The position numbers were made by a program, and so were the translations under genes. Positions 28,833-42,924 of a stretch of DNA of 64,000 nucleotides are shown here, in pieces. The notes beneath the pieces are model-generated. The model made no database searches, was not told the DNA's origin, and was given only the letters and a program-made list of their open reading frames with translations. The DNA comes from a virus (Duplodnaviria > Heunggongvirae > Uroviricota > Caudoviricetes), in the IMG/VR virus record IMGVR_UViG_3300046000_008568, positions 94,501-158,500 of that record; one strand, given 5' to 3'. Numbering within the stretch: the stretch's first letter is position 1; each line of letters opens with the position of its first letter.

Positions 28833-28860
28833 TCGTAAATTTATAGCATAATTTAAAACA
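28833..28860 (+). promoter_or_regulatory. conserved early promoter cassette, copy 1
   Basis: TCGTAAATTTATAGCATAATTTAAAACA, then TATAAAGGTTATG 11 nt before the ORF start. Confidence 0.5.
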
Positions 28861-28870
28861 TATAAAGGTT

Positions 28871-29662
28871 ATGAAAATTACAAATCAAAGAATACCCATG
28901 GTGCTTCCCGAAGTACAAGCAGTTTGCCCAAGTGCGTTCACAACTACCGTAGCGCCTCATTTATCCCAAAATTATACTCATATCCCTACCTCACAGGTAG
29001 TAATGGATATGATTGAGTTGGGTTGGACACCAGTTAGTGCCCAAGAAGTTAGATCCCGTAAGTCAATAGGGTTCCAAAAACACATTATTAGATTCCAAAA
29101 TCAAAACATCACTATTAAAGGTGCTAATAATGATGATGTGTTTCCGGAATTGTTATTAACTAATTCACACGATGGTAAAAATGCATTTCATTTACGAGTA
29201 GGATTATATAGAACGGTATGTTCTAATGGTCTAGTAGTAGCTGATGCTGAATTTAGTAACGTAGCAATTCGTCATTCGGGTTATACGTTTGAACAATTGC
29301 GTGCCCAAGTATTAGTTATGATTGAAAATTTACCTAATCTAGTAAATAAAATCAACTCATTCAGAGATGTATCATTGTCAGATGAGCAACAAATTGAATT
29401 TGCTATAAGAGCAGCCCAAATCAGATGGAAAAACCAAGACATAACAGTAAATGCTGATGAATTACTATTAGCTGAACGTAACTTAGATATGGGTTCAGAT
29501 TTATGGGCAGTATTTAATAGAGTGCAAGAGAAGTTAGTAAATGGTGGGATTAGCTACAATAAGGGTAGAAAAACACGTAAAGTACGAGCTTTAAAAAATT
29601 TCACCGCAGATATGTATTTCAATGGTGAATTATGGCAATTAGCAGAAGAATATATTAACTAA
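28871..29662 (+). CDS. hypothetical protein
   Basis: 263 aa ORF behind cassette 1. Confidence 0.5.
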   Translation: MKITNQRIPMVLPEVQAVCPSAFTTTVAPHLSQNYTHIPTSQVVMDMIELGWTPVSAQEVRSRKSIGFQKHIIRFQNQNITIKGANNDDVFPELLLTNSHDGKNAFHLRVGLYRTVCSNGLVVADAEFSNVAIRHSGYTFEQLRAQVLVMIENLPNLVNKINSFRDVSLSDEQQIEFAIRAAQIRWKNQDITVNADELLLAERNLDMGSDLWAVFNRVQEKLVNGGISYNKGRKTRKVRALKNFTADMYFNGELWQLAEEYIN

Positions 29663-29676
29663 AATAAAATAGAGAA

Positions 29677-29931
29677 ATGGATATTTACGATCAATTATTT
29701 GAAATTCACTCACAGTTAGAAAACGATGAGATGTGGTTAACCATTATTGAAGGTTACTTTGAAGAATATGAAGTAGACAATATAGATGACTTTATAGATA
29801 AGTTAGCTGAAGCCGAAATAGAAGGTGTTGTTTATACTTTAATCAACGAAGGTGAAAATTTACTATCACTTAAAGAAACAGACGAGTGGTTTGATGACGA
29901 TTATGGTAATGACGATTACGACAACTATTAA
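29677..29931 (+). CDS. acidic hypothetical protein
   Basis: 84 aa, Asp/Glu-rich. Confidence 0.4.
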   Translation: MDIYDQLFEIHSQLENDEMWLTIIEGYFEEYEVDNIDDFIDKLAEAEIEGVVYTLINEGENLLSLKETDEWFDDDYGNDDYDNY

Positions 29932-29940
29932 AACAAACTT

Positions 29941-29962
29941 GGAGGCGCAAGCCTCCTTTTGT
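29941..29962 (+). terminator. rho-independent terminator
   Basis: GGAGGC-GCAA-GCCTCC followed by TTTTG. Confidence 0.55.
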
Positions 29963-29986
29963 AATTTTATAGCATAATTTAAAACA
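29959..29986 (+). promoter_or_regulatory. conserved early promoter cassette, copy 2
   Basis: TTGTAATTTTATAGCATAATTTAAAACA + TATAAAGGTTATG. Confidence 0.5.
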
Positions 29987-29996
29987 TATAAAGGTT

Positions 29997-30299
29997 ATGA
30001 ATAAAGAAATCAAATCAATAGCATACACATTTTTATTTTTATTAATATACTTTTGGGCATCAAAAGGTATTGTTAAACTATTTTTTAATACTAATGATAA
30101 ACGTAAATTTGATAACCAAGTCAAGTTTCTTAATTATTGTTTTGTATTATTTTCATTAGTCTATCTTATAGGAATTTACCACATAGTAGGCCCCTTCCAC
30201 ACAGCAGGTTTTTATAAAGCATTTGTTATATTTAATCTTATTTACTTAACTTTAGGAAATATATTTAACTCATTACCAATAAACAACTTTAAAAATTAA
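29997..30299 (+). CDS. membrane protein
   Basis: 100 aa with 3 TM helices. Confidence 0.4.
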   Translation: MNKEIKSIAYTFLFLLIYFWASKGIVKLFFNTNDKRKFDNQVKFLNYCFVLFSLVYLIGIYHIVGPFHTAGFYKAFVIFNLIYLTLGNIFNSLPINNFKN

Positions 30300-30303
30300 T
30301 ATT

Positions 30304-30585
30304 ATGACAAAACGTATCCAAATTGAGTCAACATTAGCTAAAATAGCAAATGTAGTATTTGAAACTAAAGATTTCAAATTAGCACAACAAACTGCACTTG
30401 ATCACTTAGCTGAAAGTAGTATTAAAGAATCGGATAGATTAAAAATGATCGAAGAGATATCTAAAGCTAAAAACCTACAACGCTTACAAATATATTGTGC
30501 TAATGCATTATTAAAGTATGAAGGATTAGGTGTAGGTAGACCACAATCAAATAAAACAGAACCAACCGATGATAGTGAAATATAA
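30304..30585 (+). CDS. hypothetical protein
   Basis: 93 aa ORF. Confidence 0.4.
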   Translation: MTKRIQIESTLAKIANVVFETKDFKLAQQTALDHLAESSIKESDRLKMIEEISKAKNLQRLQIYCANALLKYEGLGVGRPQSNKTEPTDDSEI

Positions 30586-30720
30586 AACCATAGAACATTC
30601 ACTTGTGGCTCGTTTAGATGATGAGATAACACAACACCTCCAATTAGGTTGGGAATTATACGGAGCACAATATTATACAGGGTTCCGTTATGTGCAAGTA
30701 GTAACTTTAAAAGAAGAATA

Positions 30721-30921
30721 ATGAATAAATTAGAAGTAGTATTAACAGCATTAGGAGTATTAGCAGTAACAGCAGTTATTTTAGCTTGGCCAACACAATG
30801 GCTTTGGAATAACGCTCTAGTAGGAGCTATAGATGGGATCAATCCAATAGGATTTTGGCAGGCATTAGGTATTAATTTCTTATTTGGAATTTTAATAAAA
30901 AATAATTCAAATAGCAATTAA
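30721..30921 (+). CDS. small membrane protein
   Basis: The internal ATG at 30721 (MNKLEVVLTALGVLAV...) is preferred over the track start at 30649. Confidence 0.35.
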   Translation: MNKLEVVLTALGVLAVTAVILAWPTQWLWNNALVGAIDGINPIGFWQALGINFLFGILIKNNSNSN

Positions 30922-30922
30922 A

Positions 30923-31177
30923 ATGAAGACAAAAACAATTTTAAAGACAATTGGATTTTTAATAGGATGGATAGTATCTTTCCAATTGATAGGTGTGGGA
31001 ACATCCTTAATGAATCAACCAAGCAATCTTTCATTTACATTTGGGGTAATATGCTTCCTATTGATTGTGATATCAATTTTTACATGTGCCTATAAATTCT
31101 CACAGGCCGCAGTACAATTAATAACAGAGTATAGAGAGAGTAAAGAAGTTAAACAAGAAAAAGAAGAAAAGTTATGA
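30923..31177 (+). CDS. small membrane protein
   Basis: 84 aa with 2 TM helices. Confidence 0.4.
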   Translation: MKTKTILKTIGFLIGWIVSFQLIGVGTSLMNQPSNLSFTFGVICFLLIVISIFTCAYKFSQAAVQLITEYRESKEVKQEKEEKL

Positions 31178-31536
31178 TATTATTAATAATAATTTTAGTA
31201 GCGTTAGTAATTATATCCTTAATAGTACTAGGAATGTTTCTATCTGAGTATGATGGTATATTAAATGATCAAATTATAAAAGATTATCTAGATAAATTAG
31301 GAGATAAGTATACTGTGTACATTGGAGAATATACTCAGAGAATACAACCTACTTACTCAGCAACTGTAAAAAAGGATATTGAAAGGTCTCCTGCATTCAT
31401 TCGATTAGTTTTTCCATATCACATAGAGTATGTAGGAGTAATTCCAGCCTGGAGTAAGTCAAAGTCTAGAATTGATGCAATGTTTGGACAAGGAACAAAA
31501 AGTAATTGGAAGAGAAAAAAATTAGGATTAGAATAA
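31174..31536 (+). CDS. membrane-anchored protein
   Basis: 120 aa with an N-terminal TM helix; ATGA overlap. Confidence 0.4.
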   Translation: MILLIIILVALVIISLIVLGMFLSEYDGILNDQIIKDYLDKLGDKYTVYIGEYTQRIQPTYSATVKKDIERSPAFIRLVFPYHIEYVGVIPAWSKSKSRIDAMFGQGTKSNWKRKKLGLE

Positions 31537-31579
31537 TAAATAAAAATAAACAATTAAATCAATTTAAACAAAAGTAGTT

Positions 31580-32437
31580 ATGAACAGAATTTTAGTAGCA
31601 GTAGCAGTAGTTTTAGTAGTGTTAGGATTAGCAGGATCATGTAAGATTGCCGATTCGGCAGAAGTAGCATTGGTAGTAGATCAGATTGGAACCAATAAAG
31701 GAGTTCCCAACATTGAAATGGCAAGTGGATTTATCTTCTATTTCCCACCAACACAGGACGTGTTTATGTATCCAACATCAGTTCAGCATAAAGTATGGAC
31801 AGCAGATTCAAATGAAGACTCTCCAACAGATGAACATATTGATGTAACGTCGGCAGATGGAGCTACATTTGGATTAGATGTATCTATTAACTTACAATTG
31901 CAGAGAGCAAGAGCAGCTGAGTTATTTATCAAGTATAGAGTTGATATGGAAGATTTAATCAATTCAAGAGTAAGAACTATAGTTAGAAAAGAGTTACTAG
32001 ACAATGCAGTTAACTTCGCTTCAGATAGCTTATTACAGCACAGAAATGTGTATGAAGGTAATGTAACAAGATCTTTAACAGCTTCTTTAGAGAAGGAAGG
32101 ATTTACATTAAACAATATTGCAATTCTTAAAATGCAATTGCCTAAATCATACAAAGCAGCTATTGAAAGAAAGATTGCAGTACTACAAGAAACAGCAACT
32201 ATTATATCACAAACTAAACAAGCTGAACAAACCGCATTAAAGAAAGTAGCATTAGCAAAAGGTAACTACGAAGCAGCACAGTATGATGCTAAAACAAAAG
32301 AAATCTTATCACAACCTAAATTACTTGAATTATATAAAGCAGAGACAGCACGTATCAGAGCAACAAATGGTACATCTGAATATGGTTCAAACAACGTATT
32401 TGGTTCAGCAGGTAATATTTTGCTAAATAGAAATTAA
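31580..32437 (+). CDS. SPFH/band-7 (prohibitin/HflKC-like) domain protein, probable lipoprotein
   Basis: Signal peptide ending LAGSC (lipobox-like); central region matches the SPFH pattern followed by a coiled-coil tail. Confidence 0.45.
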   Translation: MNRILVAVAVVLVVLGLAGSCKIADSAEVALVVDQIGTNKGVPNIEMASGFIFYFPPTQDVFMYPTSVQHKVWTADSNEDSPTDEHIDVTSADGATFGLDVSINLQLQRARAAELFIKYRVDMEDLINSRVRTIVRKELLDNAVNFASDSLLQHRNVYEGNVTRSLTASLEKEGFTLNNIAILKMQLPKSYKAAIERKIAVLQETATIISQTKQAEQTALKKVALAKGNYEAAQYDAKTKEILSQPKLLELYKAETARIRATNGTSEYGSNNVFGSAGNILLNRN

Positions 32438-32459
32438 AATATTCAAAGATAATTGATTG

Positions 32460-32485
32460 AAGGCTTGCTAACGCGAGCCTTTTTT
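32460..32485 (+). terminator. rho-independent terminator
   Basis: AAGGCT-TGCTAACGCG-AGCCTT followed by TTTTTCAT. Confidence 0.55.
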
Positions 32486-32508
32486 CATATCTTTATAAAA
32501 AATTAGAT

Positions 32509-32703
32509 ATGGCAGGATTATACAACATGATGGATAACGGTATCGCAAATGAATTGGGAGTTGATCTTTATACTTACATTAAAATAATAGAACATAAATG
32601 TACTGAAGACGAAGCAGGTTTTATTATTATGACTATTTTAACAGAAGATAAAGATAATCTAGAAAAAGCAAAAGAAACATTTAATAAGTATTTAGATAAA
32701 TAA
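32509..32703 (+). CDS. hypothetical protein
   Basis: 64 aa ORF. Confidence 0.35.
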   Translation: MAGLYNMMDNGIANELGVDLYTYIKIIEHKCTEDEAGFIIMTILTEDKDNLEKAKETFNKYLDK

Positions 32704-32706
32704 CAC

Positions 32707-33045
32707 ATGAATTTTATACTAGGATTATTATACGGAGCGTTTGCTCAAATACTTACATTTATACAACTACAAGGTCAATTCAAATACACTTGGATGAAAG
32801 ATAATCCATTAATAATGGCAGCATTTGGTTTTCCATTATCGCTATTGTATTTACTATCTGTAAAACATATGGTTGCTTATTTTGAGGGAAATTTATGGCC
32901 TTCTCGTTTAGTAGGTTTTGCTGTCGGAGCTATTGTATTTACCTTTATGTCTTGGATTTGGTTCCGAGAACCAATTACATTAAAAACAGGGATATGTCTA
33001 ATCCTATCTCTAGCGATAATGGGGGTGCAAATATTTTGGAAATGA
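32707..33045 (+). CDS. membrane protein
   Basis: 112 aa with 4 TM helices. Confidence 0.4.
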   Translation: MNFILGLLYGAFAQILTFIQLQGQFKYTWMKDNPLIMAAFGFPLSLLYLLSVKHMVAYFEGNLWPSRLVGFAVGAIVFTFMSWIWFREPITLKTGICLILSLAIMGVQIFWK

Positions 33046-33263
33046 TAAATTTAGAGTATATTATAGATGGAGTATATGTTGTATATTTCAATACAAAAAA
33101 GATAGGTGAGTTCACAGTACAGGATGATGGATTCTTTGGATTTTACCCTAATGAACTTTCAGGGTATTGGAGCTCGTATGCTTTAAGACTTATAGCAGAT
33201 AAGCTAGATGAACTAAATAAAGAATGGGACGAACACATTAAGAAAAATTTAGGAAATGAGTAA
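33042..33263 (+). CDS. hypothetical protein
   Basis: The ATG at 33042 (ATGA overlap) is preferred over the track start at 32895, which overlaps the upstream gene. Confidence 0.4.
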   Translation: MINLEYIIDGVYVVYFNTKKIGEFTVQDDGFFGFYPNELSGYWSSYALRLIADKLDELNKEWDEHIKKNLGNE

Positions 33264-33561
33264 ACTAGAAAAATGTCACCACTGCGGTGAAGAAAAAGAA
33301 GATTGTTATCACGGATTCATAGCAATGTGTCTTCCTATTCCGGAAGCAGAAGATAAAATCAAGAAGTGGGGTGGAGAAGGTTGGTGGAAGAATTTAGAAC
33401 GAACCGATCTTACAGATGAGGAAGCAAAAGAATTAGATGATCTTTGCTCATACGACCAATTTCTAAACACAGTTGGACGAGGCATTCAATGTGATGATTG
33501 TGGTAAATTAGAAGCGGAATTATATGCAAAATACTATCCGGAACAATATAAGTCCGAATAA
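33256..33561 (+). CDS. Cys-rich hypothetical protein
   Basis: 101 aa; CHHCGEEKEDC...C...CDDCGK zinc-ribbon-like. Confidence 0.4.
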   Translation: MSKLEKCHHCGEEKEDCYHGFIAMCLPIPEAEDKIKKWGGEGWWKNLERTDLTDEEAKELDDLCSYDQFLNTVGRGIQCDDCGKLEAELYAKYYPEQYKSE

Positions 33562-33616
33562 AGCATAAACAAAGCTTGCAGTAACACAACACAATACAAA
33601 CATACGTATATACGAG

Positions 33617-33808
33617 ATGATAAGAAAATTATATTACAAACTAGTTAGATTTATTGGATACTCAATTTTAATACACGATTATTACAATCCAGAGACATTT
33701 GAGTTGGAAAAGAAATATGCTTATGTGGGACTTTATAAGTACTTAGGCAATTACAAGCACGATGGTAGTTTAAAAATGATTCAAATTTGGGAAATTAAAA
33801 TCAGATAA
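33617..33808 (+). CDS. hypothetical protein
   Basis: 63 aa. Confidence 0.3.
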   Translation: MIRKLYYKLVRFIGYSILIHDYYNPETFELEKKYAYVGLYKYLGNYKHDGSLKMIQIWEIKIR

Positions 33809-33811
33809 GAT

Positions 33812-34003: not shown

Positions 34004-34005
34004 AA

Positions 34006-34143: not shown

Positions 34144-34146
34144 ATC

Positions 34147-34380: not shown

Positions 34381-34400
34381 GTTGGCTTATAGGAATTGTA

Positions 34401-34429
34401 TTCGTAAATTTATAGCATAATTTAAAACA
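34401..34429 (+). promoter_or_regulatory. conserved early promoter cassette, copy 3
   Basis: TTCGTAAATTTATAGCATAATTTAAAACA + AAGGTTATG. Confidence 0.5.
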
Positions 34430-35128: not shown

Positions 35129-35197
35129 TGTTGTGAGGCGTATTGGTATACGCACCGATCGAAAGGGAGATAGTAGGTTCGATTCCTACCACAACAT
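35129..35197 (+). ncRNA. isolated degenerate tRNA-like element
   Basis: Acceptor TGTTGTG/CACAACA; D-arm GCGT-ATTGGTAT-ACGC; T-arm GTAGG-TTCGATT-CCTAC; no foldable anticodon arm; lies 15 kb from the tRNA array. Confidence 0.4.
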
Positions 35198-35214
35198 CAA
35201 ATAATTTAAAACAA

Positions 35215-35949: not shown

Positions 35950-36700
35950 TTTTTTTTGTTTAACGCATTGTTTTTTTGTTGTACACAACGCCATGTATAA
36001 TTGGAGTTCATTGAAACTATCGCGTATTTTTGCGCAATAAACGCGGTTTTTTTGTTGCTTAAGCAGTATAGTAACGTTTGTAGAACAAGACGCAAGTAGG
36101 TCAAACAGTTTGTGTGGTAATGGTTTTTTTGTAACAAATGCATTATAGTATATGGAATGCTATATAATAATGGGTATTGTGGTTTGTTGTGTAGGGGCAA
36201 ATCCCCGCCCCGCTCCGTCCCGTTTCCTTCGAAACCAAAACGTATATACAACGTTTCGTAACGCTTTGTTCAATATTTGTGCGATGTTTTGTTGTTTTAT
36301 TGCAGTATCCTCAGTCGCCACACGCGGAAGGAATTCTCATTCACAATGAAGTGGCGATTTTGTTGTGAACAATGCAATTTCGGCGACAAATTTGGTTACC
36401 TCAAGTTTTTTTTGTATATTATATTAAACATAAAATAAATTTTATATGCCTATTATCGTACCGTTTCCCGTTTATGGATTGCTTTTTGGAATACAATATG
36501 TCGCTGGCGACGTAGATGAGAATTTTGATCTAGACGACGACGTCCACATGGTCCAAATTGCACTTGGTTTTTTTGGTTTATCCATTATGTGGTAAGACCG
36601 TAGTGTTTTTTTTTTGTTCACAACTTTTTTTGCTAGAAATTTGGCTACGTTATTTTTGTGTCGTAATTTTATAGCAGAGTTAAAATAAACAAATATTAAC
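35950..36700. other. 750-bp non-coding region with iterated T7-8G(T) tracts and CACAA/TTGTG inverted repeats
   Basis: At least eight TTTTTTTGT copies, some after short hairpins (e.g. CGCGT...ACGCG at 36026-36055); the track ORFs in this region are short with odd composition. Confidence 0.4.
36661..36686 (+). promoter_or_regulatory. conserved early promoter cassette, copy 4
   Basis: TCGTAATTTTATAGCAGAGTTAAAAT + AAAGGTTATG. Confidence 0.5.
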
Positions 36701-36716: not shown

Positions 36717-37040
36717 ATGACACGTAATGAAATCATTGCAACAGTAAAAGAAATGGGTATCAAAACGCAACGCCCAGCACATCAAATGAAAACAGAAGCT
36801 CTTCAAGCGCTGTTAGACGCCCACACAAGCGAGACAAAAGCTCGTGGACGTAAAATTAATTTGGGTAGCGCCCGCCAAGCCAGATTAGCTGCCAGAGCGG
36901 CTCTTGAGCTAGAGGGACCAGTCCAAAAAGGCCGACGCGTCAATACAGCTAGTGCTCGTCAACAACGATTAGCTGCTTTTGAGGCACGCAAGGCGAATGG
37001 TGAGACCATCAAGCGAGGAAGACCGGCTCTGGCAATGTAA
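36717..37040 (+). CDS. basic protein with SAP/Rho_N-like N-terminus and internal repeats
   Basis: 107 aa; two copies of (K/R)GR(K/R)xNxxSARQxRLAAxxA; higher GC than its neighbours. Confidence 0.45.
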   Translation: MTRNEIIATVKEMGIKTQRPAHQMKTEALQALLDAHTSETKARGRKINLGSARQARLAARAALELEGPVQKGRRVNTASARQQRLAAFEARKANGETIKRGRPALAM

Positions 37041-37068: not shown

Positions 37069-37097
37069 GACCCGACAGAAATGTTGGGTCTTTTTTT
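37069..37097 (+). terminator. rho-independent terminator
   Basis: GACCC-(12 nt)-GGGTC followed by TTTTTTTG. Confidence 0.5.
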
Positions 37098-37263
37098 GTC
37101 GTACATAATATTTTTGTTCGTAATTGTTCATAAGCAATTTTTGTTTTACTAGGATATATCAGAAATTTTTCGTACCTTTACCCCAATTTAAAGAAGAAAA
37201 AAACAACACAATAAAACAAAGCGAAAATGAATTGAGAAAAACTTGGTTGCCGGGTAAAAAGAT

Positions 37264-37290
37264 ATTAATTTTATGCCTGAGTTAAAAACA
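37264..37290 (+). promoter_or_regulatory. early promoter cassette variant
   Basis: ATTAATTTTATGCCTGAGTTAAAAACA + AAGGTTATG. Confidence 0.4.
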
Positions 37291-37636: not shown

Positions 37637-37639
37637 TTA

Positions 37640-37664
37640 AAGCGCTTCGGCGCTTTTTTTTTAT
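37640..37664 (+). terminator. rho-independent terminator (AGCGCTTCGGCGCT family)
   Basis: AGCGC-TTCG-GCGCT tetraloop hairpin followed by T10. Confidence 0.65.
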
Positions 37665-37690
37665 CTATGTTTGGTTTATAGAAATACAAT

Positions 37691-37717
37691 TCGTAATTTT
37701 ATAGCAGAGTTAAAAAC
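37691..37717 (+). promoter_or_regulatory. conserved early promoter cassette, copy 5
   Basis: TCGTAATTTTATAGCAGAGTTAAAAAC. Confidence 0.5.
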
Positions 37718-37743
37718 AATAATAACAATTAAAAAATTAAATC

Positions 37744-38016
37744 ATGAAGGGATTAGAAGACATTTTAAACAAAGTACACCAGAGAGCAGGCTTATTAGCA
37801 GTTATAACTGGTGTTTTACAGACGTCTAGCTGTGAGGCAACTAAAAAATCAATCGCAAGCACTTTAAAGCACATTTTTGATGAGTACTCAGTGAATGATG
37901 ACATTGAAAGAATGACTAAACGTGCTATGAATGAAGTGCTGGAACAGAAAGAAGACAGTGCTGAGGACCAGTTAAAATTAATGATTAATATGATGAGAGA
38001 AGCTTTAAAAGATTAA
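37744..38016 (+). CDS. hypothetical protein
   Basis: 90 aa. Confidence 0.4.
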   Translation: MKGLEDILNKVHQRAGLLAVITGVLQTSSCEATKKSIASTLKHIFDEYSVNDDIERMTKRAMNEVLEQKEDSAEDQLKLMINMMREALKD

Positions 38017-38020
38017 GGTT

Positions 38021-38194
38021 ATGAAAAACGAAATTAAAAATTTAGCTGATGATCTAGAATTAGGAGACGATACTATCGAAAGAGATGCGTTTATTAGAGA
38101 ATTTGAAGAAGCTGTAGATTTAATGAGAGAAGACGATTGGGATCAGTTTTATGCTTTCGCCGACATTATAATGCAGAAATATTAATTAAAGCGC
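38021..38194 (+). CDS. small acidic protein (57 aa), not in track
   Basis: AAGGTTATG leader; followed by a terminator. Confidence 0.3.
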
Positions 38195-38197
38195 TTC

Positions 38198-38220
38198 GGC
38201 GCTTTTTTTTGTTTACACGA
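38198..38220 (+). terminator. rho-independent terminator (AGCGCTTCGGCGCT family)
   Basis: Identical hairpin followed by T8G. Confidence 0.65.
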
Positions 38221-38227
38221 GATATGA

Positions 38228-38256
38228 TTCGTATCTTTATATCATAGTAATTTAAA
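38228..38256 (+). promoter_or_regulatory. conserved early promoter cassette, copy 6
   Basis: TTCGTATCTTTATATCATAGTAATTTAAAA + AAGGTCATG. Confidence 0.45.
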
Positions 38257-38267
38257 AAATTAAGGTC

Positions 38268-38462
38268 ATGAAAGAAACAGTTAGAGATGTTATTGATTAT
38301 TTTGATAAGGAATATCCTTACGTTGATTTAGGAATGTTATCTGAAAATTCTATAAGTGGGTTTTTGGTACAAGATTATATAGTAAATTTATCGTTTGAAC
38401 GAAAGATGGATTGTTTGTATGATTACATTCTCTCACAAGATTTGTGTGGTGTAGAAGAATAA
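38268..38462 (+). CDS. hypothetical protein
   Basis: 64 aa. Confidence 0.35.
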   Translation: MKETVRDVIDYFDKEYPYVDLGMLSENSISGFLVQDYIVNLSFERKMDCLYDYILSQDLCGVEE

Positions 38463-38465
38463 ATA

Positions 38466-38516
38466 AAGCGCTTAGGCGCTTTTTTTGTCCCAACGTGTTT
38501 GGGACATTTTTTTGTC
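38466..38516 (+). terminator. tandem pair of rho-independent terminators
   Basis: AGCGCTTAGGCGCT+T7 followed immediately by GTCCCAACGTGTTTGGGAC+T7. Confidence 0.6.
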
Positions 38517-38540
38517 GTACATTTATAGCCTAATTTAAAA
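38515..38540 (+). promoter_or_regulatory. conserved early promoter cassette, copy 7
   Basis: TCGTACATTTATAGCCTAATTTAAAA. Confidence 0.45.
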
Positions 38541-38549
38541 TTGAATAAA

Positions 38550-39110
38550 ATGAAAACATTAGTTATACACCCTAAAGACAAATCAACTGATTTCCTCAAG
38601 CCAATCTACGCCGGCCTAGATGAGGTCACTCTAGTGACTGGGGGCCTGAACCAAGAAGATATACTTCAGGCAATCCAGACGCACGATCAAGTGATGATGA
38701 TGGGGCATGGGAGTCCAAGCGGGTTGTTTGCCGTGGGGCAATTTCCATTCGCCCGGCCCTATTCGGGCTATGTGATCGGGGCTGATCTAGTTGAGGCGCT
38801 GAGCCAGAAGGACAACAACATTTTTATCTGGTGTAACGCAGACCAGTTTGTCAACCGACATGAGCTCAAGGGCTTCTATAGCGGGATGTTTGTCTCTGAG
38901 ACCGGCGAGGCTTTTTATTGCGGCGTCAAGACATTTGATCAGGTGTCCGTAACCGAATCGAATGACACGTTCGCCCGCCTGCTCGGGGAGTGTCTTCAGG
39001 CCACGCGCGCGCCAGAAGAGATCCACAGCCAGATAAAAGAACAGTATGGCTCTCTAGCCGGCACTAACCTTATAGCGGCATATAATCATCAACGTCTTTA
39101 TTTGAATTAA
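38550..39110 (+). CDS. GC-rich (about 50%) horizontally acquired gene of unknown function
   Basis: 186 aa from the ATG at 38550 (the track start at 38541 is TTG); uses GGG/GCC/CGC codons rare elsewhere in the window; flanked by cassette promoter 7 and a normal terminator. Confidence 0.5.
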   Translation: MKTLVIHPKDKSTDFLKPIYAGLDEVTLVTGGLNQEDILQAIQTHDQVMMMGHGSPSGLFAVGQFPFARPYSGYVIGADLVEALSQKDNNIFIWCNADQFVNRHELKGFYSGMFVSETGEAFYCGVKTFDQVSVTESNDTFARLLGECLQATRAPEEIHSQIKEQYGSLAGTNLIAAYNHQRLYLN

Positions 39111-39141
39111 TTTATGTTTTGTTTTGTTGTGTTATAATTTA

Positions 39142-39170
39142 TTCGTATCTTTATAACAGAGTTAATAACA
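39142..39170 (+). promoter_or_regulatory. conserved early promoter cassette, copy 8
   Basis: TTCGTATCTTTATAACAGAGTTAATAACA + AAAGTTATG. Confidence 0.45.
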
Positions 39171-39189
39171 ACAATTAAAAATTAAAGTT

Positions 39190-39429
39190 ATGTTAAAATT
39201 TAAAGAAAATGTTTATGGTTTTGTTTATGATTCAAGTATTGGTAGTGTAAAGAAAATTTACAATAGACAATTAACTGAAGATGAAATAGAATTAATAAAT
39301 GAAGTAATTAGTGAAGATGATGTTTTACTTACAAACATTGAAGATGTAAGAGAATTATTTGAAATAACATCTAAAGAACATTTAACAAGTGATGAAGAAG
39401 GTTTAAATGAAGTATTTGATTTTGTTTAA
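39190..39429 (+). CDS. acidic hypothetical protein
   Basis: 79 aa. Confidence 0.4.
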   Translation: MLKFKENVYGFVYDSSIGSVKKIYNRQLTEDEIELINEVISEDDVLLTNIEDVRELFEITSKEHLTSDEEGLNEVFDFV

Positions 39430-39438
39430 TTAAAATTT

Positions 39439-39465
39439 AAAGACTCTTAATTGAGTCTTTTTTTG
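39439..39465 (+). terminator. rho-independent terminator (AGACTCTTAATTGAGTCT family)
   Basis: AGACTC-TTAATT-GAGTCT followed by T7G. Confidence 0.6.
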
Positions 39466-39491
39466 TCTCTATTTGGTTTATAGAAATACAA

Positions 39492-39520
39492 TTCGTATCT
39501 TTATATAAGAGTTAAAAACA
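39492..39520 (+). promoter_or_regulatory. conserved early promoter cassette, copy 9
   Basis: TTCGTATCTTTATATAAGAGTTAAAAACA. Confidence 0.45.
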
Positions 39521-39547
39521 TAATAATAACAATTAAAAAATTAAATT

Positions 39548-39850
39548 ATGAATGAAGATCAAAACCCAGAAACAGACGAGAACGTATTAGAAGATTGTTT
39601 GTTTCATTTAACAGTAAAAGACGGTGTAACGTCTCTTAAAGTAGAAGGTACATTAGGAGGTATATCAGAAGCATTTGCTAATGCCGCCTTACAGAGCCCT
39701 CAACTAGATGAGGTACTTAAAATGGTTACTTATATGTTGTTTGAACATCATATGGAAAATAAAGACGAGCCAAATGATAATGAAGATGATGTACCAGCTG
39801 AAGCAACAGAAATGTTAAAGAAACTGTTTGGTCAAATGGGTGAAGCTTAA
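39548..39850 (+). CDS. acidic hypothetical protein
   Basis: 100 aa. Confidence 0.4.
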   Translation: MNEDQNPETDENVLEDCLFHLTVKDGVTSLKVEGTLGGISEAFANAALQSPQLDEVLKMVTYMLFEHHMENKDEPNDNEDDVPAEATEMLKKLFGQMGEA

Positions 39851-39881
39851 TTAAAGTAGATTTGGTGGGGCGAAAGCCTCA

Positions 39882-39907
39882 CCGTATCTTTATATCAAAG
39901 TTAAACA
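39882..39907 (+). promoter_or_regulatory. conserved early promoter cassette, copy 10
   Basis: CCGTATCTTTATATCAAAGTTAAACA preceded by a GTGGGGCGAAAGCCTCAC hairpin. Confidence 0.4.
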
Positions 39908-39920
39908 ACAAATAAAAGTT

Positions 39921-40133
39921 ATGAAAGCAAAAATTAAAATCAAAAACGGTTATTGGACGTACAATGGAGTTCCTGTTAAGAACTGTTCATTTCCAATTCA
40001 AACATTAGTTGCCTCGTTTATTAAAACACAAGTGTTCAATAATGAGGTTAAAGCAGTGCAGGTGTCTAGACCGACTGAGATAAATTTAGGTCAGGTTTTT
40101 TGTTCCACACCAGTTTTTATACCAGTACAATAA
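39921..40133 (+). CDS. hypothetical protein
   Basis: 70 aa. Confidence 0.35.
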   Translation: MKAKIKIKNGYWTYNGVPVKNCSFPIQTLVASFIKTQVFNNEVKAVQVSRPTEINLGQVFCSTPVFIPVQ

Positions 40134-40525
40134 TGTCAACGAGATCATACATTGGGACTCTTAAAGAGGATAAACAGGTGTTTTTTGTGTACTGTCATTT
40201 CGACGGTTACCCTACAGGTGTAGGTAGAATATTAAGAGAGTATTATGACAGACCTGAGCGTGTAATTAAATTGCTTTCTTTTGGTAACATAAGTTCATTA
40301 GCTACCTTAATTGATGATACTGTCTTTTACGGGCGTGACAGAAATGAGCCAAACCAAGAACAACAACAAACAACCATTTATGAATACCTCCCAAGTGCGG
40401 GATCAGAAGATTCTGGAGTGGATTACAAATACTTGTTTGATGAATATAGTGAAGAGTGGTCTTGTTACAACATGCGAGGCGACCTAATTGAAATACCTAC
40501 TGATGATCTAGACATAATCAGGTAG
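40133..40525 (+). CDS. hypothetical protein
   Basis: ATG at 40133 (TAATG overlap), 130 aa. Confidence 0.4.
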   Translation: MSTRSYIGTLKEDKQVFFVYCHFDGYPTGVGRILREYYDRPERVIKLLSFGNISSLATLIDDTVFYGRDRNEPNQEQQQTTIYEYLPSAGSEDSGVDYKYLFDEYSEEWSCYNMRGDLIEIPTDDLDIIR

Positions 40526-40596
40526 TTATGCTTTAATTTTTTAATGTTGTTTTGAGACGGCTCATCAGAAATGGTGAGCCGCCTCTATTTATAGCC

Positions 40597-40803
40597 ATGA
40601 AGTACAAGACATTTATTACATTTTTGATCGTCTGGATCGCTGAGAATCTGGCGGTGCCATTTTGGGTGGTAGGGCATGTCCATCTTACAATGAACATTTA
40701 TAAGGACATTCATGAGGTGATTGCCTCATTTGGGATGAACATTATAGTGCTTATAGGGATATGGCTTGGGTGGAAAAAAAATTTAAAAGAAAATGAAAAA
40801 TAA
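40597..40803 (+). CDS. small membrane protein
   Basis: ATG at 40597 (MKYKTFITFLIVWIAENL...), 2 TM helices. Confidence 0.35.
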   Translation: MKYKTFITFLIVWIAENLAVPFWVVGHVHLTMNIYKDIHEVIASFGMNIIVLIGIWLGWKKNLKENEK

Positions 40804-40833
40804 TTATAATAATGTTTGGTTATATTATGTTTA

Positions 40834-40863
40834 GTTTATATCTTTATATAAGAGTTAAAAACA
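40834..40863 (+). promoter_or_regulatory. conserved early promoter cassette, copy 11
   Basis: GTTTATATCTTTATATAAGAGTTAAAAACA + AAGGTTATG. Confidence 0.45.
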
Positions 40864-40890
40864 ACAATTAATAATTAAAAAATTAAGGTT

Positions 40891-41196
40891 ATGGAAATTA
40901 AATTAATGAATTTTACAGACAATTTAAACGATGTTAATAAATTTAACAGTAAAAAGTTTAATTGTGAAATTGACGATGCAGTAAATAATGTTTACTGTTG
41001 TGAGTTACAATTAAAAGATTGTGATGGTAGCTGTTTAGAGAGTATATTAGCTGATATAGTTTATAGTGAGTTAAGTTGTATAGTTGTTATAAATAATAAT
41101 GATCATTATACTGTAAATAATGATAATGATCGTGATAATGTTTATAATGAAATTAAATTAAAATATAATTTAACTGATTTGGAAATTTGGAGTTAA
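40891..41196 (+). CDS. Asn/Asp-rich hypothetical protein
   Basis: 101 aa, very C-poor coding sequence. Confidence 0.4.
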   Translation: MEIKLMNFTDNLNDVNKFNSKKFNCEIDDAVNNVYCCELQLKDCDGSCLESILADIVYSELSCIVVINNNDHYTVNNDNDRDNVYNEIKLKYNLTDLEIWS

Positions 41197-41210
41197 AAAT
41201 AATAAAAATT

Positions 41211-41236
41211 AAAGACTCTTAATTGAGTCTTTTTTA
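41211..41236 (+). terminator. rho-independent terminator (AGACTCTTAATTGAGTCT family)
   Basis: Same hairpin followed by a T-run. Confidence 0.6.
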
Positions 41237-41325
41237 ATCTATATTAACCCAAAGCTATATTTAGTTATTTAGAATGAATATAAATGGTAAAATAATTGTA
41301 AATATATTTTGTTATGTTGTGTTTT

Positions 41326-41352
41326 ATTATTATCTTTATAGTGTTAAAATAA
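41326..41352 (+). promoter_or_regulatory. early promoter cassette, C-depleted variant (copy 12)
   Basis: TTATTATCTTTATAGTGTTAAAATAA + AAGGTTATG. Confidence 0.4.
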
Positions 41353-41376
41353 ATAATTAATTAAAAAATTAAGGTT

Positions 41377-41616
41377 ATGAAAAAATTAAGTTTTGGGTTT
41401 TGCTTTTATGGTAGTAAAAAAGGTTTAAAAGATTGTGAGAAATGTGAGAATGTTTTATTAGAAAATAATATTGAATTTGAAAGAAATGATAGAATGTATA
41501 ATTTTAAAAGTTTCTTTAAAAGTAAAGATTTATTAAATGATAAAATTAATAATGTTAGAAATTTAATGTTAGAAAATGATATAATAAAATATGTTATTTT
41601 TGAGGGTGAGAAATAA
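41377..41616 (+). CDS. hypothetical protein lacking Ala/Thr/Pro/His/Gln
   Basis: 79 aa; only 2-3 cytosines in the gene. Confidence 0.4.
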   Translation: MKKLSFGFCFYGSKKGLKDCEKCENVLLENNIEFERNDRMYNFKSFFKSKDLLNDKINNVRNLMLENDIIKYVIFEGEK

Positions 41617-41652
41617 ATAAATTAAAATAAGGTTGGAGGTGTAAGCCTCCTT

Positions 41653-41680
41653 CCTTAATTTTATATCAGAGTTTAAAACA
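41653..41680 (+). promoter_or_regulatory. conserved early promoter cassette, copy 13
   Basis: CCTTAATTTTATATCAGAGTTTAAAACA preceded by a GGAGG-TGTAA-GCCTCC hairpin. Confidence 0.4.
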
Positions 41681-41705
41681 ACAATTAATAATTAAAATTA
41701 AAGTT

Positions 41706-41906
41706 ATGAAAAATTATTTAGTAATTAGTATTGAAGACGTAAATGACACTTTTGAAGTTAATGATTTAGATGAATTAATTAAAGATATGTACTCACAAGA
41801 ATTATTTGATGGTTCATTTGAAACAGTTAAAAAGTGGTTTTTTAATAATTACAATGTTTATGAAAGTGAAAGTGAAATTAAATTATTAAAATTAGAAGAC
41901 TCTTAA
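41706..41906 (+). CDS. acidic hypothetical protein
   Basis: 66 aa. Confidence 0.4.
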   Translation: MKNYLVISIEDVNDTFEVNDLDELIKDMYSQELFDGSFETVKKWFFNNYNVYESESEIKLLKLEDS

Positions 41907-41920
41907 TTGAGTCTTTTTTT
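41896..41920 (+). terminator. rho-independent terminator (AGACTCTTAATTGAGTCT family)
   Basis: Same hairpin followed by T7G. Confidence 0.6.
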
Positions 41921-41974
41921 GTCTAATAATATATTAAAAATATTTTGTGATTTGTTTGTTTATATGGAATTAAT

Positions 41975-42000
41975 ATGTTAATTTTATAGTGTTAAAATAA
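41975..42000 (+). promoter_or_regulatory. early promoter cassette, C-free variant (copy 14)
   Basis: ATGTTAATTTTATAGTGTTAAAATAA. Confidence 0.4.
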
Positions 42001-42027
42001 TTAAATAATAATTAAAAAATTAGTGTT

Positions 42028-42444
42028 ATGGAAAAGTATTTAGGTAAAATGTTAGGTAAAGAAGTTAAGTTAGAATTAGAGAATGTTTATGAGAAGTATT
42101 GTTGGAATGATTTAGGTGTTGGGGATGATAGTAGAATGGATAGAGATGAGTGGAGTAAAATGTTGGAGAAGTTTGTTGATTTTAGATTATATGTTAGTGG
42201 GGGAAGGTATGGTTGTAGTATGGGAAGTGTTGGTTGTGAGAGTGTAAGTGGGTTTTTAAATGAGATATTTTTATTTGATAATATGATGTGTGATTGGGGT
42301 GGGTGTTATAGAGGTGATTTTAGTTATGAGTGTTTAGATGGGTTAATTGAATTATTAAATGAAAGTAGTTTAAGTGATGATATTAAGGAGATGATAATTG
42401 ATGGGTATAAAGAAGAGAATGGATTAAATGATGATGAAGAATAA
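42028..42444 (+). CDS. hypothetical protein encoded without any C-containing codon
   Basis: 138 aa with no Ala, Thr, Pro, His or Gln; Gly/Asp/Glu/Cys-rich. Confidence 0.45.
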   Translation: MEKYLGKMLGKEVKLELENVYEKYCWNDLGVGDDSRMDRDEWSKMLEKFVDFRLYVSGGRYGCSMGSVGCESVSGFLNEIFLFDNMMCDWGGCYRGDFSYECLDGLIELLNESSLSDDIKEMIIDGYKEENGLNDDEE

Positions 42445-42520
42445 AAATAAATAATGTAAGTATAAATGATGAAATAGTTTGAAAATAATTTATATTTAGT
42501 TAGGTTATGTTGAATTAAAG

Positions 42521-42547
42521 TTGTAATTTTATAGTGTTAAAAAATAA
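42521..42547 (+). promoter_or_regulatory. early promoter cassette, C-free variant (copy 15)
   Basis: TTGTAATTTTATAGTGTTAAAAAATAA. Confidence 0.4.
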
Positions 42548-42572
42548 TATTAATAATTAAAAATTAGAAAAA

Positions 42573-42824
42573 ATGGAAGAAATTTTAATTGATTTATTTG
42601 GTTGTGGAAATGATAATGAGTATGAAAGTGGAGAAAGAGTTGAATGTTTATTTGAAGATGAGGAGTATAATGATAGAGAAAATTATGATGATGAGTTTGT
42701 AGATGATTGGATTGAGTTAAAGAATAGGTTAAAAAATGGAATGATTGTAAATAAAGAATTTAATGGTGATATTAATTTTGAATTAGTAGGTGAAGATATA
42801 TTAATGTGGTTTATAGAAGAATAA
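42573..42824 (+). CDS. acidic hypothetical protein encoded without any C-containing codon
   Basis: 83 aa with no Ala/Thr/Pro/His/Gln. Confidence 0.45.
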   Translation: MEEILIDLFGCGNDNEYESGERVECLFEDEEYNDRENYDDEFVDDWIELKNRLKNGMIVNKEFNGDINFELVGEDILMWFIEE

Positions 42825-42895
42825 TTTAGTATAAGTATAAATGATGAAATAGTTTGAAAATAATTTATATTTAGTTTGGTTTATAGATTTATAGT

Positions 42896-42924
42896 TTGTA
42901 ATTTTATATCTGAGTTTAAAACAA
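42896..42924 (+). promoter_or_regulatory. conserved early promoter cassette, copy 16
   Basis: TTTGTAATTTTATATCTGAGTTTAAAACA. Confidence 0.45.

Follow-up and report, generated by a model that had tools for sequence, protein, structure and literature searches.

Co-oriented early-type gene cassettes headed by putative Bacteroidetes-type promoters in a large uncultured phage

A repeated intergenic element, referred to here as the box, was analyzed in a stretch of 64,000 nucleotides (nt) of phage DNA (positions 94,501 to 158,500 of the IMG/VR virus record IMGVR_UViG_3300046000_008568, Caudoviricetes); this whole stretch is called the window below. The box was found at 25 sites between 15.9 and 43.7 kb of the window, all of them intergenic and on the + strand, and each copy appears to be a strong version of the housekeeping (sigma-ABfr type) promoter of the Bacteroidetes. 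In the arrangement that we propose, about 25 transcription units, split by composite terminator/promoter elements, would form the early region of the phage. Each promoter would consist of TTTGG at -33, a 20-nt spacer often ending in TCG, TAhhTTTA from -12 to -5 and a following TA, whereas an intrinsic hairpin located 40-80 nt upstream of the start or within the -33/-7 spacer would end the preceding unit. The host RNA polymerase would start about 5 nt downstream of the -7 element, usually at an A, within a clade-specific A/T-rich A-G-A-G-TTAAAA stretch, which would give an unstructured A-rich leader without a Shine-Dalgarno sequence. The near-identical heads and terminators of the units would let whole cassettes of orphan open reading frames (ORFans) be gained, lost and moved between related phages.

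The sites were scored with a position weight matrix (PWM) built from positions -36 to -3 only, which cover the -33 region and TAnnTTTATA, with the downstream half kept independent. At a threshold of 15.3 bits, the top score among 20 Markov-random 64-kb sequences, no site was found on the - strand or within genes in the window; both the glycosyltransferase block (1-15 kb) and the baseplate/structural block (44-64 kb) were free of sites. An initial annotation of this DNA had described more than 16 copies of the box between 28833 and 42924 and had set as a test beforehand that the box should not occur at equal density in genes. The count was confirmed, with 17 PWM sites in that range and two weaker ones at 37173 and 37266, and 25 of the 25 sites are intergenic. 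The array is wider than first described, as eight sites lie beyond this range (15907, 16540, 19167, 20809, 22123, 24890, 27399 and 43655; Table 1). A strict 18-mer (TTTATAGCAKAGTTAAAA) with up to two mismatches gave 10 matches against 0.05 expected, and an independent repeat search of the window returned the same repeat families.

Alignment of 21 sites revealed that conservation reaches upstream of the box as first drawn. The aligned consensus reads gtTTGG, 20 nt, (tCG)TAnnTTTATA and then n-c-A-g-AGTTaAAAac, with exactly 20 nt separating the G of TTG from TA. The -7 part (TAhhTTTA) is followed by the AGTTAAAA start region, and the spacing from TATA to GTTAAAA differs by 3 nt between subtypes. 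The predicted +1 position is an A in 18 of the 25 sites; the predicted start is the A of TAGC-A-GAG, with AGTTAAAA as the first ten transcribed bases. Predicted leaders of the box-headed units are 9-41 nt long, so the initial placement of the box 25-40 nt upstream of an ORF describes the subtype at 36.6-43 kb and not the array as a whole. Likewise, self-contained mini-operons are found at 36.6-43.1 kb, where 14 units contain one to three genes each, whereas the units at 27.4-36 kb contain two to eight genes. The proposal that the box acts as a promoter is supported: the copies share one orientation, lie between genes and have a fixed geometry. In addition, the site at 16540 is situated 60 nt upstream of the first tRNA of an 18-tRNA array, which indicates that the box acts in transcription and not in translation.

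The assignment to the host-type promoter is based on a comparison with the Flavobacterium literature. In the F. johnsoniae housekeeping promoter T-12, A-11, T-8, T-7, T-6 and G-5 are nearly invariant, G is virtually absent at -10/-9 (TAHHTTTG), the start follows after 4-5 nt and TTTG is located near -33 (PMC6847099). The sigma-A motifs of F. psychrophilum contain the same -12 to -5 box with G at -5 (Guerin 2021, PMC9723704), and the sigma-ABfr promoter has been given as TTTG/TAnnTTTG (Bayley 2000, Vingadassalom 2005 and Chen 2007, as cited in PMC6847099). In the window, the TA and TTT of the -7 element are present in 25 of 25 sites. The dinucleotide at -10/-9 is AT (9), TC (8), TA (4), CA (2) or AA (2), with G at none of the 25 sites, in agreement with the TAHHTTT rule, and TTTG(G) occurs at the host-type distance. 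The likeness to the sigma-ABfr promoter comprises TA at -12/-11, TTT at -8 to -6 and TTTG about 20 nt upstream, and it extends to leadered mRNAs without Shine-Dalgarno sequences; the predicted box leaders resemble the host mean of 33 nt (PMC6847099). A reading of the box as a sigma-70 promoter was rejected, since a scan returned 103 sites against 103.2 expected. The box had been judged too long and too conserved for host sigma-A, but that judgement was made against TTGACA/TATAAT; measured against the Bacteroidetes consensus, its 5' half would correspond to the -7 element, with TTTGG 20 nt upstream, and the objection is not supported.

Several observations weigh against this assignment. The base at -5 is A in 25 of 25 sites and G in none, although the host G is nearly invariant, and it is followed by a conserved TA. 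This TA at -4/-3 and the downstream AGTTAAAA at +3 to +10 are conserved beyond what a host promoter needs, the TCG at -15 to -13 also exceeds the host consensus, and the -33 element (TTTGG) is much stronger than that of Bacteroidetes hosts, where it is described as 'much less evident' (PMC6847099). Canonical TAHHTTTG is unenriched in the window, since the intergenic share of its + strand copies (7 of 36) equals the non-coding fraction; the phage thus seems to use the A variant only. The AGTTAAAA part was absent from unrelated phages having the upstream half and is accordingly clade-specific. Furthermore, only 64 kb of a genome of probably about 160 kb was examined, which bears on the presence of a phage sigma factor or RNA polymerase modifier, and the 'early' timing is deduced from gene content and position only.

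These deviations would be explained if the box were read by a phage sigma factor, or by a host polymerase retargeted in the manner of MotA/AsiA, in which case the copies would be middle-type promoters; a MotA-like factor was also the suggestion of the initial annotation. A second motif in the window, ATATTTATA, which lacks the -33 element and stands before structural genes, hints at phage-directed promoter classes with a TTTATA core. The array further resembles the T4 MotA/AsiA middle promoters, which likewise form a class of phage promoters whose long conserved box precedes many small pre-late genes. In T4 middle promoters, however, a MotA box at -30 takes the place of the -35 element. A MotA-type promoter would replace the upstream element in this way, whereas the window retains the host TTTG at the host spacing and its sequence does not need an activator, which leaves the MotA reading unsupported. 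The box class also covers all early-looking units, including the tRNAs, and no other promoter is present to start the infection. No sigma-like or MotA/AsiA-like hit was obtained for the 30 of about 103 window proteins scanned, which is a weak test.

Other phages provided evidence on the base at -5. The viral collection in IMG/VR was scanned with the pattern TTTGG-N16-TCG-TAnnTTTATA, and the N17 version served as negative control. The pattern was found in at least 118 viral contigs, against 28 single matches with the spacer lengthened by 1 nt. We took 80 loci from the N16 scan, of which 63 have no nucleotide similarity to the window, so the architecture is present in many unrelated viral contigs. 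Within these loci TTTG-Nx-TAHHTTTG peaks sharply at N20 with 38 occurrences versus 2-14 at other spacings, and TTTG-Nx-TAHHTTTA peaks just as sharply at N20, with 109 occurrences (80 of them by selection) versus 10-30 elsewhere. Homologous promoters with the same N20 spacing carry either TATATTTGTA or TATCTTTATA, so that G and A alternate at -5, even within one contig (L112, L105 and L058). The canonical geometry of the A variant and the G/A interchange in other phages favor recognition by the same holoenzyme, and A at -5 is probably tolerated. We therefore regard a dedicated phage factor, which these data do not require, as unlikely. Recognition of the box by host sigma-A is considered likely; this use of sigma-A and the position of the start site are what we infer from the observed architecture and its statistics.

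Promoters of the same type were also observed in Flavobacterium phage vB_FspM_immuto (hereafter immuto), which infects a cultured Flavobacterium host. Its hairpin-in-spacer promoters contain TAnnTTTA and AGGTTATG, and are located upstream of nucleotide-metabolism and replication/polymerase genes. No relevant description of such promoters was found in the literature on Flavobacterium and Cellulophaga phage promoters. The elements described here provide a sequence-level promoter/terminator set for a large uncultured Flavobacteriia phage group, which can be used for annotating the transcription units of Bacteroidota phages, and they may serve as strong compact expression parts in Flavobacterium.

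The three recurring terminators of the initial annotation were recovered as three families, namely AGCGCTTCGGCGCT followed by a T-run (n=3), AGACTCTTAATTGAGTCT followed by a T-run (n=3) and GGAGGCGCAAGCCTCC (n=2), each with about 0 copies expected. Terminator-like sites number 24 in the window versus 6.2 in shuffled sequences, and the hairpins have free energies (dG) of -9 to -20 kcal/mol with z-scores of -3.4 to -6.4. A stable hairpin was found at -81 to -8 in 14 of 27 boxes, and in eight to nine of these it lies in the spacer (boxes 15907, 20809, 22123, 27399, 29962, 32488, 39885 and 41656). In the spacer hairpins, the -33 TTG forms part of the stem and the -7 T-run corresponds to the U-tract. 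In the other group, the hairpin (AGCGCTTCGGCGCT or AGACTCTTAATTGAGTCT) stands upstream of the -33 element, and its T-run may extend into TTTG. The pairing is preserved between relatives by compensatory changes, as in GGTGGGGC/GCCTCACC of the window versus GGTGGAGC/GTTCCACC of the related contig L006; such changes also occur in the hairpin of promoter 39885 in L005 and L006, and the hairpin at 29941 is rebuilt in L007 as GGAGGGG/CCCCTCC. These hairpins would function as intrinsic terminators of the preceding units, which supports the initial view of units that have terminators of their own. The presence of the hairpin-in-spacer arrangement in immuto as well suggests that the design is old in this lineage.

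Five IMG/VR contigs (L003-L007) align with parts of the array at 70-95% identity and contain these promoters in the same co-oriented arrangement. A gene-by-gene map showed that L005 and L006 both lack the five cassettes at 40891-42824, that L005 holds three cassettes missing from the window, and that the orf39190 cassette of L005 follows orf40597 instead of preceding orf39548. The orf39190 cassette is transposed in L003 too, and L003, L004, L006 and L007 contain further combinations, each of them different and each relative having cassettes of its own. The junctions fall in the promoters and leaders. In the alignment, L005 tracks window positions 40755-40890 up to the promoter/leader and then resumes as window 39190 onwards, and this switch of homology falls within a shared head of about 85 nt. 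A second junction leads from the 3' end of the orf39190 homologue through the hairpin-promoter of window 41635 to orf42952. Nineteen of 20 cassette proteins have no Pfam family, the only one recognized being DUF932 in orf28871. At the level of sequence, these comparisons show cassettes shuffling as whole units among related phages through gain, loss and transposition, much as the initial annotation had envisaged. The heads and terminators are the longest repeats of the region, and the promoter-plus-leader heads of about 60-90 nt, being near-identical between units as are the terminators, would provide portable homology for recombination.

Three further features of the cassette region were noted. 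A 55-nt direct repeat, 95% identical, stands at 42452-42506 and 42827-42881, immediately upstream of promoters 42524 and 42899; it stretches the homology between neighbouring cassettes past the box and also occurs after homologous genes in L155, L157 and L160. Two genes, orf36717 (36717-37040) and orf38571 (38571-39110), have about 50% G+C compared with 31% for the genome, which looks foreign, although both are kept in all relatives; neither has a Pfam family. The orf36717 protein is very basic and contains two GR(K/R)xN..SARQxRLAA repeats.

The closest known counterpart is found in the promoter-early stem-loops (PeSLs) of T4-type phages (Arbiol et al. 2010, PMC2839356; Comeau et al. 2014, PMC4122927). 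Like the PeSLs, the elements of the array are composites, here of a strong predicted early promoter of host-sigma type and a stem-loop that would be an effective terminator; they occur in many copies amid small ORFans and are absent from core modules, and they bound insertions, deletions and replacements between close relatives (L003-L007 in the present case). Unlike in the PeSLs, the promoter is of the Bacteroidetes -33/-7 type and not of the sigma-70 type, in about one third of the copies the hairpin is placed in the promoter spacer, with the -7 T-run as its U-tract, whereas the PeSL stem-loop is upstream of an AT-rich UP-like region, and the repeated head spans the whole leader and the start context. 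The phage itself is immuto-like, with Immutovirus as the nearest cultured group, and has no T4-type signs. The array has three of the four PeSL characteristics that can be examined in silico and lacks the other, a sigma-70 promoter in a T4-type lineage. It would thus work like the PeSLs, being an independent Bacteroidetes-type version and not a member by descent. The array itself is a Bacteroidetes-type variant of a known phage early-gene architecture. Cassette shuffling via promoters and terminators, known from T4-type coliphages and vibriophages, would have arisen independently with a different promoter type, and this independent origin supports shuffling as a general route of accessory-gene exchange in large virulent phages.

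As the cassette junctions fall in the repeats, and PeSL repeats were shown to yield mini-circles in T4-type phages (PMC2839356), the repeats might be taken mainly as recombination or mobility sites, for instance as ends of mobile mini-elements or as site-specific targets, with an incidental likeness to promoters. We consider this very improbable. The copies are co-oriented with genes at a fixed short distance before the starts, they agree with the host consensus, correctly spaced, at six or seven defined positions, and one of them heads tRNAs; no terminal inverted repeats, target-site duplications or recombinase gene were seen.

The fixed leader of the initial annotation was recovered in part. 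Its AAGGTTATG motif has 12 copies in the window against 0.99 expected, and 12 of 12 are situated at called start codons, but exact copies are present at only seven of the 19 box-proximal genes between 28833 and 42924, the remaining ones having AAAGTTATG, AAGGTCATG, AGTGTTATG or no such motif. Copies at 28272, 34820, 35536 and 38015 belong to internal genes, where they directly follow a TAA stop codon. G occupies -3 in 31 of 62 array genes versus four of 41 other genes, and [AG]GTT precedes ATG in 20 of 62 versus one of 41 (p = 1e-4). The host optimum, A at -3 (PMC6847099), was found in 28 of 41 genes outside the array versus 25 of 62 inside it. Of the 62 array genes, 56 have a purine at -3 and half have U at -1, and the leaders contain an A-rich tract at -12 to -9, in line with the host rules. 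The start context is enriched at promoter-proximal genes (13/23 versus 8/39) and recurs at 12 of 88 annotated starts in immuto. A class-specific start context of early genes, with G at -3, therefore exists, although the data do not require the leader to be 'dedicated' to initiation as had been suggested.

The AAGG at -6 to -3 of the start had been described as no Shine-Dalgarno sequence, and this holds. Such a role was rejected on account of the spacing and of the absence of a Shine-Dalgarno signal in any gene of the window, where G occurs in at most eight of 62 array genes and at most three of 41 other genes at each position from -12 to -5. Bacteroidetes initiate translation independently of Shine-Dalgarno sequences in a Kozak-like manner (Baez et al. 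2019, PMC6847099). The array shares with this system, taken together with the U(-1) pairing described below, the A-rich leader at -14 to -9, a purine at -3 and U at -1, but differs by G instead of A at -3 in half of its genes and by the extended motif AAGGUUAUG, neither of which has been described for the host. Together with the A-for-G exchange at -5 of the promoter, the G(-3)UU-AUG context bears on sigma-ABfr recognition and on start selection without Shine-Dalgarno sequences.

One explanation of this context is that the leader and (A/G)GTTATG, together with the 3' half of the box (AGTTAAAA), form a signal of early mRNAs at the RNA level, either a site for a repressor or endoribonuclease or an enhancer of Shine-Dalgarno-independent initiation. 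Such a signal is compatible with a host-type promoter upstream of it. GGUUAUG is complementary to positions 34-40 of the bacterial initiator tRNA (CAUAACC), and the enhancer version would involve extended pairing of mRNA UUAUG with tRNA CAUAA; T4 has RegA and RegB, a translational repressor and an endoribonuclease that act on early mRNAs. The enrichment of G at -3 and of [AG]GTT in array genes, the occurrence of all AAGGTTATG copies at starts, four of them at internal genes without a promoter, and the same context in the distant immuto are consistent with this explanation. The 3-nt variation between TATA and GTTAAAA would also be better tolerated by an RNA element than by a polymerase contact, and pairing of U(-1) with A37 of tRNA-fMet as a quadruplet has experimental support from E. 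coli (Hollerer and Jeschek 2023, PMC10018350).

On the other hand, inheritance with the cassette, by common descent or recombination, explains much of the pattern, as the motif is promoter-proximal and forms part of the repeated head. The internal copies look like heads that have lost their promoter; for example, the 3' end of orf37744 overlaps a leader-like TTAAAAGATTAAGGTTATG. The promoter of the tRNA array also has AGATTAAAAAG, an argument against a translational role of the +1 to +10 part. Pairing with C39 and C40 would need the anticodon stem to be opened, no RegA- or RegB-like gene was identified, and an A-to-G change at -3 cut translation by 70% in one F. johnsoniae reporter (PMC6847099). 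The phage tRNA-Met genes were rejected as a special initiator for GGTTATG, as neither has three G-C pairs in the anticodon stem. The presence of the context at internal genes and in immuto nevertheless suggests some function, and it is a possible target of a phage translational regulator, but an RNA-level signal encompassing the whole 3' half and leader seems rather doubtful to us.

The stretch 41924-42909 (986 nt) contains no cytosine on the + strand and includes two promoters of the TATAGTGTTAAAA subtype, two leaders, two ORFs and the spacers. The ORFs have 138 codons (orf42028) and 83 codons (orf42573), and both proteins are without Ala, His, Pro, Gln and Thr. A third gene, orf41377, has two C in 240 nt and lies in a low-C stretch (41335-41645). 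The next longest C-free run elsewhere in the window is 79 nt, and the longest in 896 kb of other phage loci is 96 nt. We followed the trait in the window and in loci L155-L162. Homologues of orf42028 that are 55-66% identical (P0002, P0004, P0010, P0019, P0021 and P0023) are without the same five residues, and the DNA of three of them, from independent metagenomes, is C-free over 408-650 nt whereas the flanking genes have 10-18% C. Nine orf42573 homologues were found, and the eight that were retrieved (70-93% identical) are likewise without these residues, with C-free DNA in L160, L161 and L162, and an orf41377 homologue with 51% identity has one C. The complete absence of C over 986 nt and its retention in homologues that are 51-66% identical are certain. 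C-to-T hypermutation was rejected as the cause, since G is raised to 25-31%, T is not inflated and the trait is gene-specific and conserved across independent metagenomes; the same evidence rules against an assembly artefact. A structural model of orf42028 (AlphaFold; predicted local distance difference test, pLDDT, 80) is a five-helix bundle with no significant match in the PDB (best E-value 0.97).

The C-free runs begin in or just upstream of the -7 element and end, where a terminator follows, at the first C of the hairpin (L158, L159 and L161). As they span promoter to terminator, the trait would be a property of the transcript or, equally, of a G-free template, and the total absence of C, as opposed to a mere low level, suggests a process to which even one C would be fatal. 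Prokaryotic viperins make the chain terminator 3'-deoxy-3',4'-didehydro-CTP (ddhCTP), and the collateral activity of Flavobacteriia Cas13b is UC-preferring. Candidates for the process are chain termination by ddhCTP, a lack of cytidine triphosphate (CTP), and a C-directed ribonuclease or deaminase. A tentative possibility is that the self-contained units let counter-defence genes be expressed autonomously while host nucleotides or RNA are under attack: at least three families (orf42028, orf42573 and orf41377) are C-free or nearly so, and their mRNAs could be completed without CTP and be immune to ddhCTP, CTP depletion and C-directed ribonucleases or deaminases. No description of natural cytosine-free genes was found in a literature search. 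The units resemble the artificial G-less and C-less cassettes of in vitro transcription in lacking one nucleotide and in being transcribable without that nucleoside triphosphate, but they differ in being natural, protein-coding, phage-borne and conserved in diverged homologues. They are the most surprising element of the array and, if an adaptation, would represent a new phage counter-measure written in nucleotide composition.

Table 1. Predicted box promoters, putative terminators and associated features in the window.
Feature	Position	Strand	Details
Box promoter	15883..15928	+	TA 15907; hairpin 15873-15894 overlaps -33 region; PWM 20.6 bits
Box promoter	16516..16561	+	TA 16540; predicted +1 16552, 48 nt before tRNA array; PWM 30.9 bits
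18-tRNA array	16600..20469	+	ARAGORN and Rfam; downstream of promoter 16540; weaker boxes 19167, 20809
Box promoter, weak	19143..19188	+	TA 19167; PWM 15.4 bits
Box promoter	20785..20830	+	TA 20809; hairpin 20776-20807 in spacer; PWM 21.6 bits
Box promoter	22099..22144	+	TA 22123; hairpin 22094-22117 in spacer; PWM 32.0 bits
Box promoter	24866..24911	+	TA 24890; then AAGGTTATG at 24916; PWM 22.8 bits
Box promoter	27375..27420	+	TA 27399; putative terminator hairpin 27370-27393 includes -33 TTG, dG -15 kcal/mol; PWM 34.7 bits
Box promoter	28812..28857	+	TA 28836, first copy of the initial annotation; 2-gene unit; PWM 33.5 bits
AAGGTTATG start context	28865..28873	+	One of 12
Other AAGGTTATG copies	24916, 28272, 29991, 34430, 34820, 35536, 36711, 37316, 38015, 40885, 41371	+	
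Box promoter	29938..29983	+	TA 29962; 7-gene unit; PWM 31.6 bits
Putative terminator GGAGGCGCAAGCCTCC in -33/-7 spacer of promoter 29962	29941-29956	+	dG -12.4 kcal/mol
Putative terminator with -33 TTG of promoter 32488	32459-32482	+	dG -15 kcal/mol
Box promoter	32464..32509	+	TA 32488; 8-gene unit; PWM 31.1 bits
Box promoter	34381..34426	+	TA 34405; 5-gene unit including tRNA-Ser(CGA) 35129-35198; PWM 27.4 bits
Box promoter	36640..36685	+	TA 36664; single gene 36717-37040; PWM 33.4 bits
Putative intrinsic terminator after orf36717	37069..37090	+	dG -15 kcal/mol
Weak box (TACCTTTACC)	37149..37194	+	PWM 13.5 bits; orthologues in L004, L005, L006, L007; no ORF after
Degenerate box (TAATTTTATG)	37242..37287	+	TA 37266; upstream of orf37322; PWM 9.8 bits; L006 orthologue 24.7 bits
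Putative terminator AAAGCGCTTCGGCGCTTT + T9, copy 1	37639..37656	+	
Box promoter	37670..37715	+	TA 37694; 2-gene unit; PWM 32.2 bits
Putative terminator AAAGCGCTTCGGCGCTTT, copy 2	38188..38205	+	T-run extends into -33 TTTG of next promoter
Box promoter	38208..38253	+	TA 38232; PWM 34.1 bits
Putative tandem terminators AGCGCTTAGGCGCT then TGTCCCAACGTGTTTGGGACA	38465..38506	+	Second includes -33 TTTGG of promoter 38518
Box promoter	38494..38539	+	TA 38518; heads GC-rich orf38571-39110; PWM 24.5 bits
Box promoter	39122..39167	+	TA 39146; heads orf39190, placed elsewhere in L005, L003; PWM 30.0 bits
Putative terminator AAAGACTCTTAATTGAGTCTTT + T, copy 1	39439..39460	+	
Box promoter	39472..39517	+	TA 39496; PWM 33.1 bits
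Box promoter	39861..39906	+	TA 39885; 3-gene unit; PWM 29.5 bits
Spacer-filling hairpin of promoter 39885	39863-39884	+	dG -19.6 kcal/mol; -7 T-run = U-tract
Box promoter	40815..40860	+	TA 40839; recombination junction versus L005 (alignment); PWM 27.2 bits
Putative terminator AGACTCTTAATTGAGTCT, copy 2	41211..41232	+	
Box promoter, subtype TATAGTGTTAAAA	41307..41352	+	TA 41331; heads orf41377; PWM 24.8 bits
Box promoter	41632..41677	+	TA 41656; putative terminator in spacer; PWM 25.3 bits
Putative terminator GGAGGTGTAAGCCTCC in spacer of promoter 41656	41635-41650	+	dG -14.5 kcal/mol
Putative terminator AGACTCTTAATTGAGTCT, copy 3	41894..41917	+	Last C before C-free stretch: 41923
Box promoter, C-free subtype	41955..42000	+	TA 41979; heads orf42028-42444; PWM 21.6 bits
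Box promoter, C-free subtype	42500..42545	+	TA 42524; heads orf42573-42824; PWM 27.1 bits
Box promoter	42875..42920	+	TA 42899, last copy of the initial annotation; heads orf42952; PWM 29.2 bits
Weak box	43631..43676	+	TA 43655; predicted +1 = A of ATG 43667; PWM 16.1 bits

The window has 31% G+C and a coding fraction of 82%, and all called genes are on the + strand. It is divided into a first block (0.2-15 kb) of glycosyltransferase and sugar-type genes almost without intergenic DNA, a second block (16-44 kb) with the 18-tRNA array, an RNA ligase and about 60 small ORFs, and a third block from about 47 kb with baseplate and further structural genes. A search of 10 larger proteins against PHROGs returned glycosyltransferases, RNA ligase, baseplate wedge and a lipoprotein-like family, and found no transcription factor among them. 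With Rfam at the gathering threshold, only tRNAs were found in the whole window, the leaders and non-coding blocks matching no known RNA family. The source phage is absent from the cultured-phage collection searched by megablast; the sole cultured relative is immuto, with 78% identity over 2% of the query, which carries a family A polymerase and DnaB. The lack of both Shine-Dalgarno sequences and sigma-70 promoter enrichment fits a Bacteroidota host. The source is likely a virulent myovirus-like phage of a Flavobacteriia host in which this region holds the early (pre-structural) genes, a likelihood that we attach jointly to the explanation as a whole.

In the first 50 kb of immuto (L008, 1-50 kb), a full set of 7-deazaguanine DNA-modification genes (QueC, QueD, QueE, QueF, FolE and DpdA) was observed adjoining promoters of the same type as the box. 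By analogy, a modification of G in the DNA of the window's phage could be relevant to why G is avoided at -5, or to the G-free templates.

The 13-kb block at 198-13184 consists of tightly packed or overlapping genes, two glycosyltransferases among them, with a single intergenic gap of at least 20 nt and no box promoter; it looks like one long transcription unit of another regulatory class. The second motif, (T)ATATTTATA, was found without a -33 TTTG at 14274, 15049, 44472, 46995, 49915, 52533 and 59800, and stands 15-35 nt before the start codons of structural or late-looking genes. The T4 late promoter, TATAAATA, also has the shared core, and by analogy the motif may be a late promoter class with a common TTTATA core. 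At the downstream end of the array, orf43667, which follows the box at 43655, heads a long unit running into the structural genes, and from the predicted start its mRNA may be leaderless. The weak box TACCTTTAyy (37149-37260) is kept in all relatives and is followed in the window by about 90 nt without an ORF. In L004 (690) and L007 (reverse strand, 256), it stands directly before the orf38571 orthologue; the window copy may be either a small RNA or a promoter that a cassette rearrangement has left without its gene.

Two non-coding blocks (35950-36660 and 43200-43650) flank the array of single-gene cassettes, and an Rfam search of both found nothing. The first block, about 710 nt long, is 78-85% conserved in L005 and L006 and contains at least eight T7-10-G tracts and short direct repeats, while the second, at 53% G+C, is GC-rich and carries GCGCGC palindromes. 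Possible roles of the two blocks are an origin, small RNAs or regulatory regions. The palindrome-bearing ACGTATATAC occurs at 33604, 36240 and 43616, three copies against 0.13 expected and each of them non-coding, with two copies immediately upstream of ORFs 33617 and 43667. Among the tRNAs, tRNA-Ser(CGA) (35129-35198) is isolated inside a cassette operon, and an extra tRNA at 17383-17457 was called by Rfam and missed by ARAGORN. Two tRNA-Met(CAU) genes are adjacent, the first of which has an unpaired 1-72 position and is without the initiator-type GGG/CCC anticodon stem.

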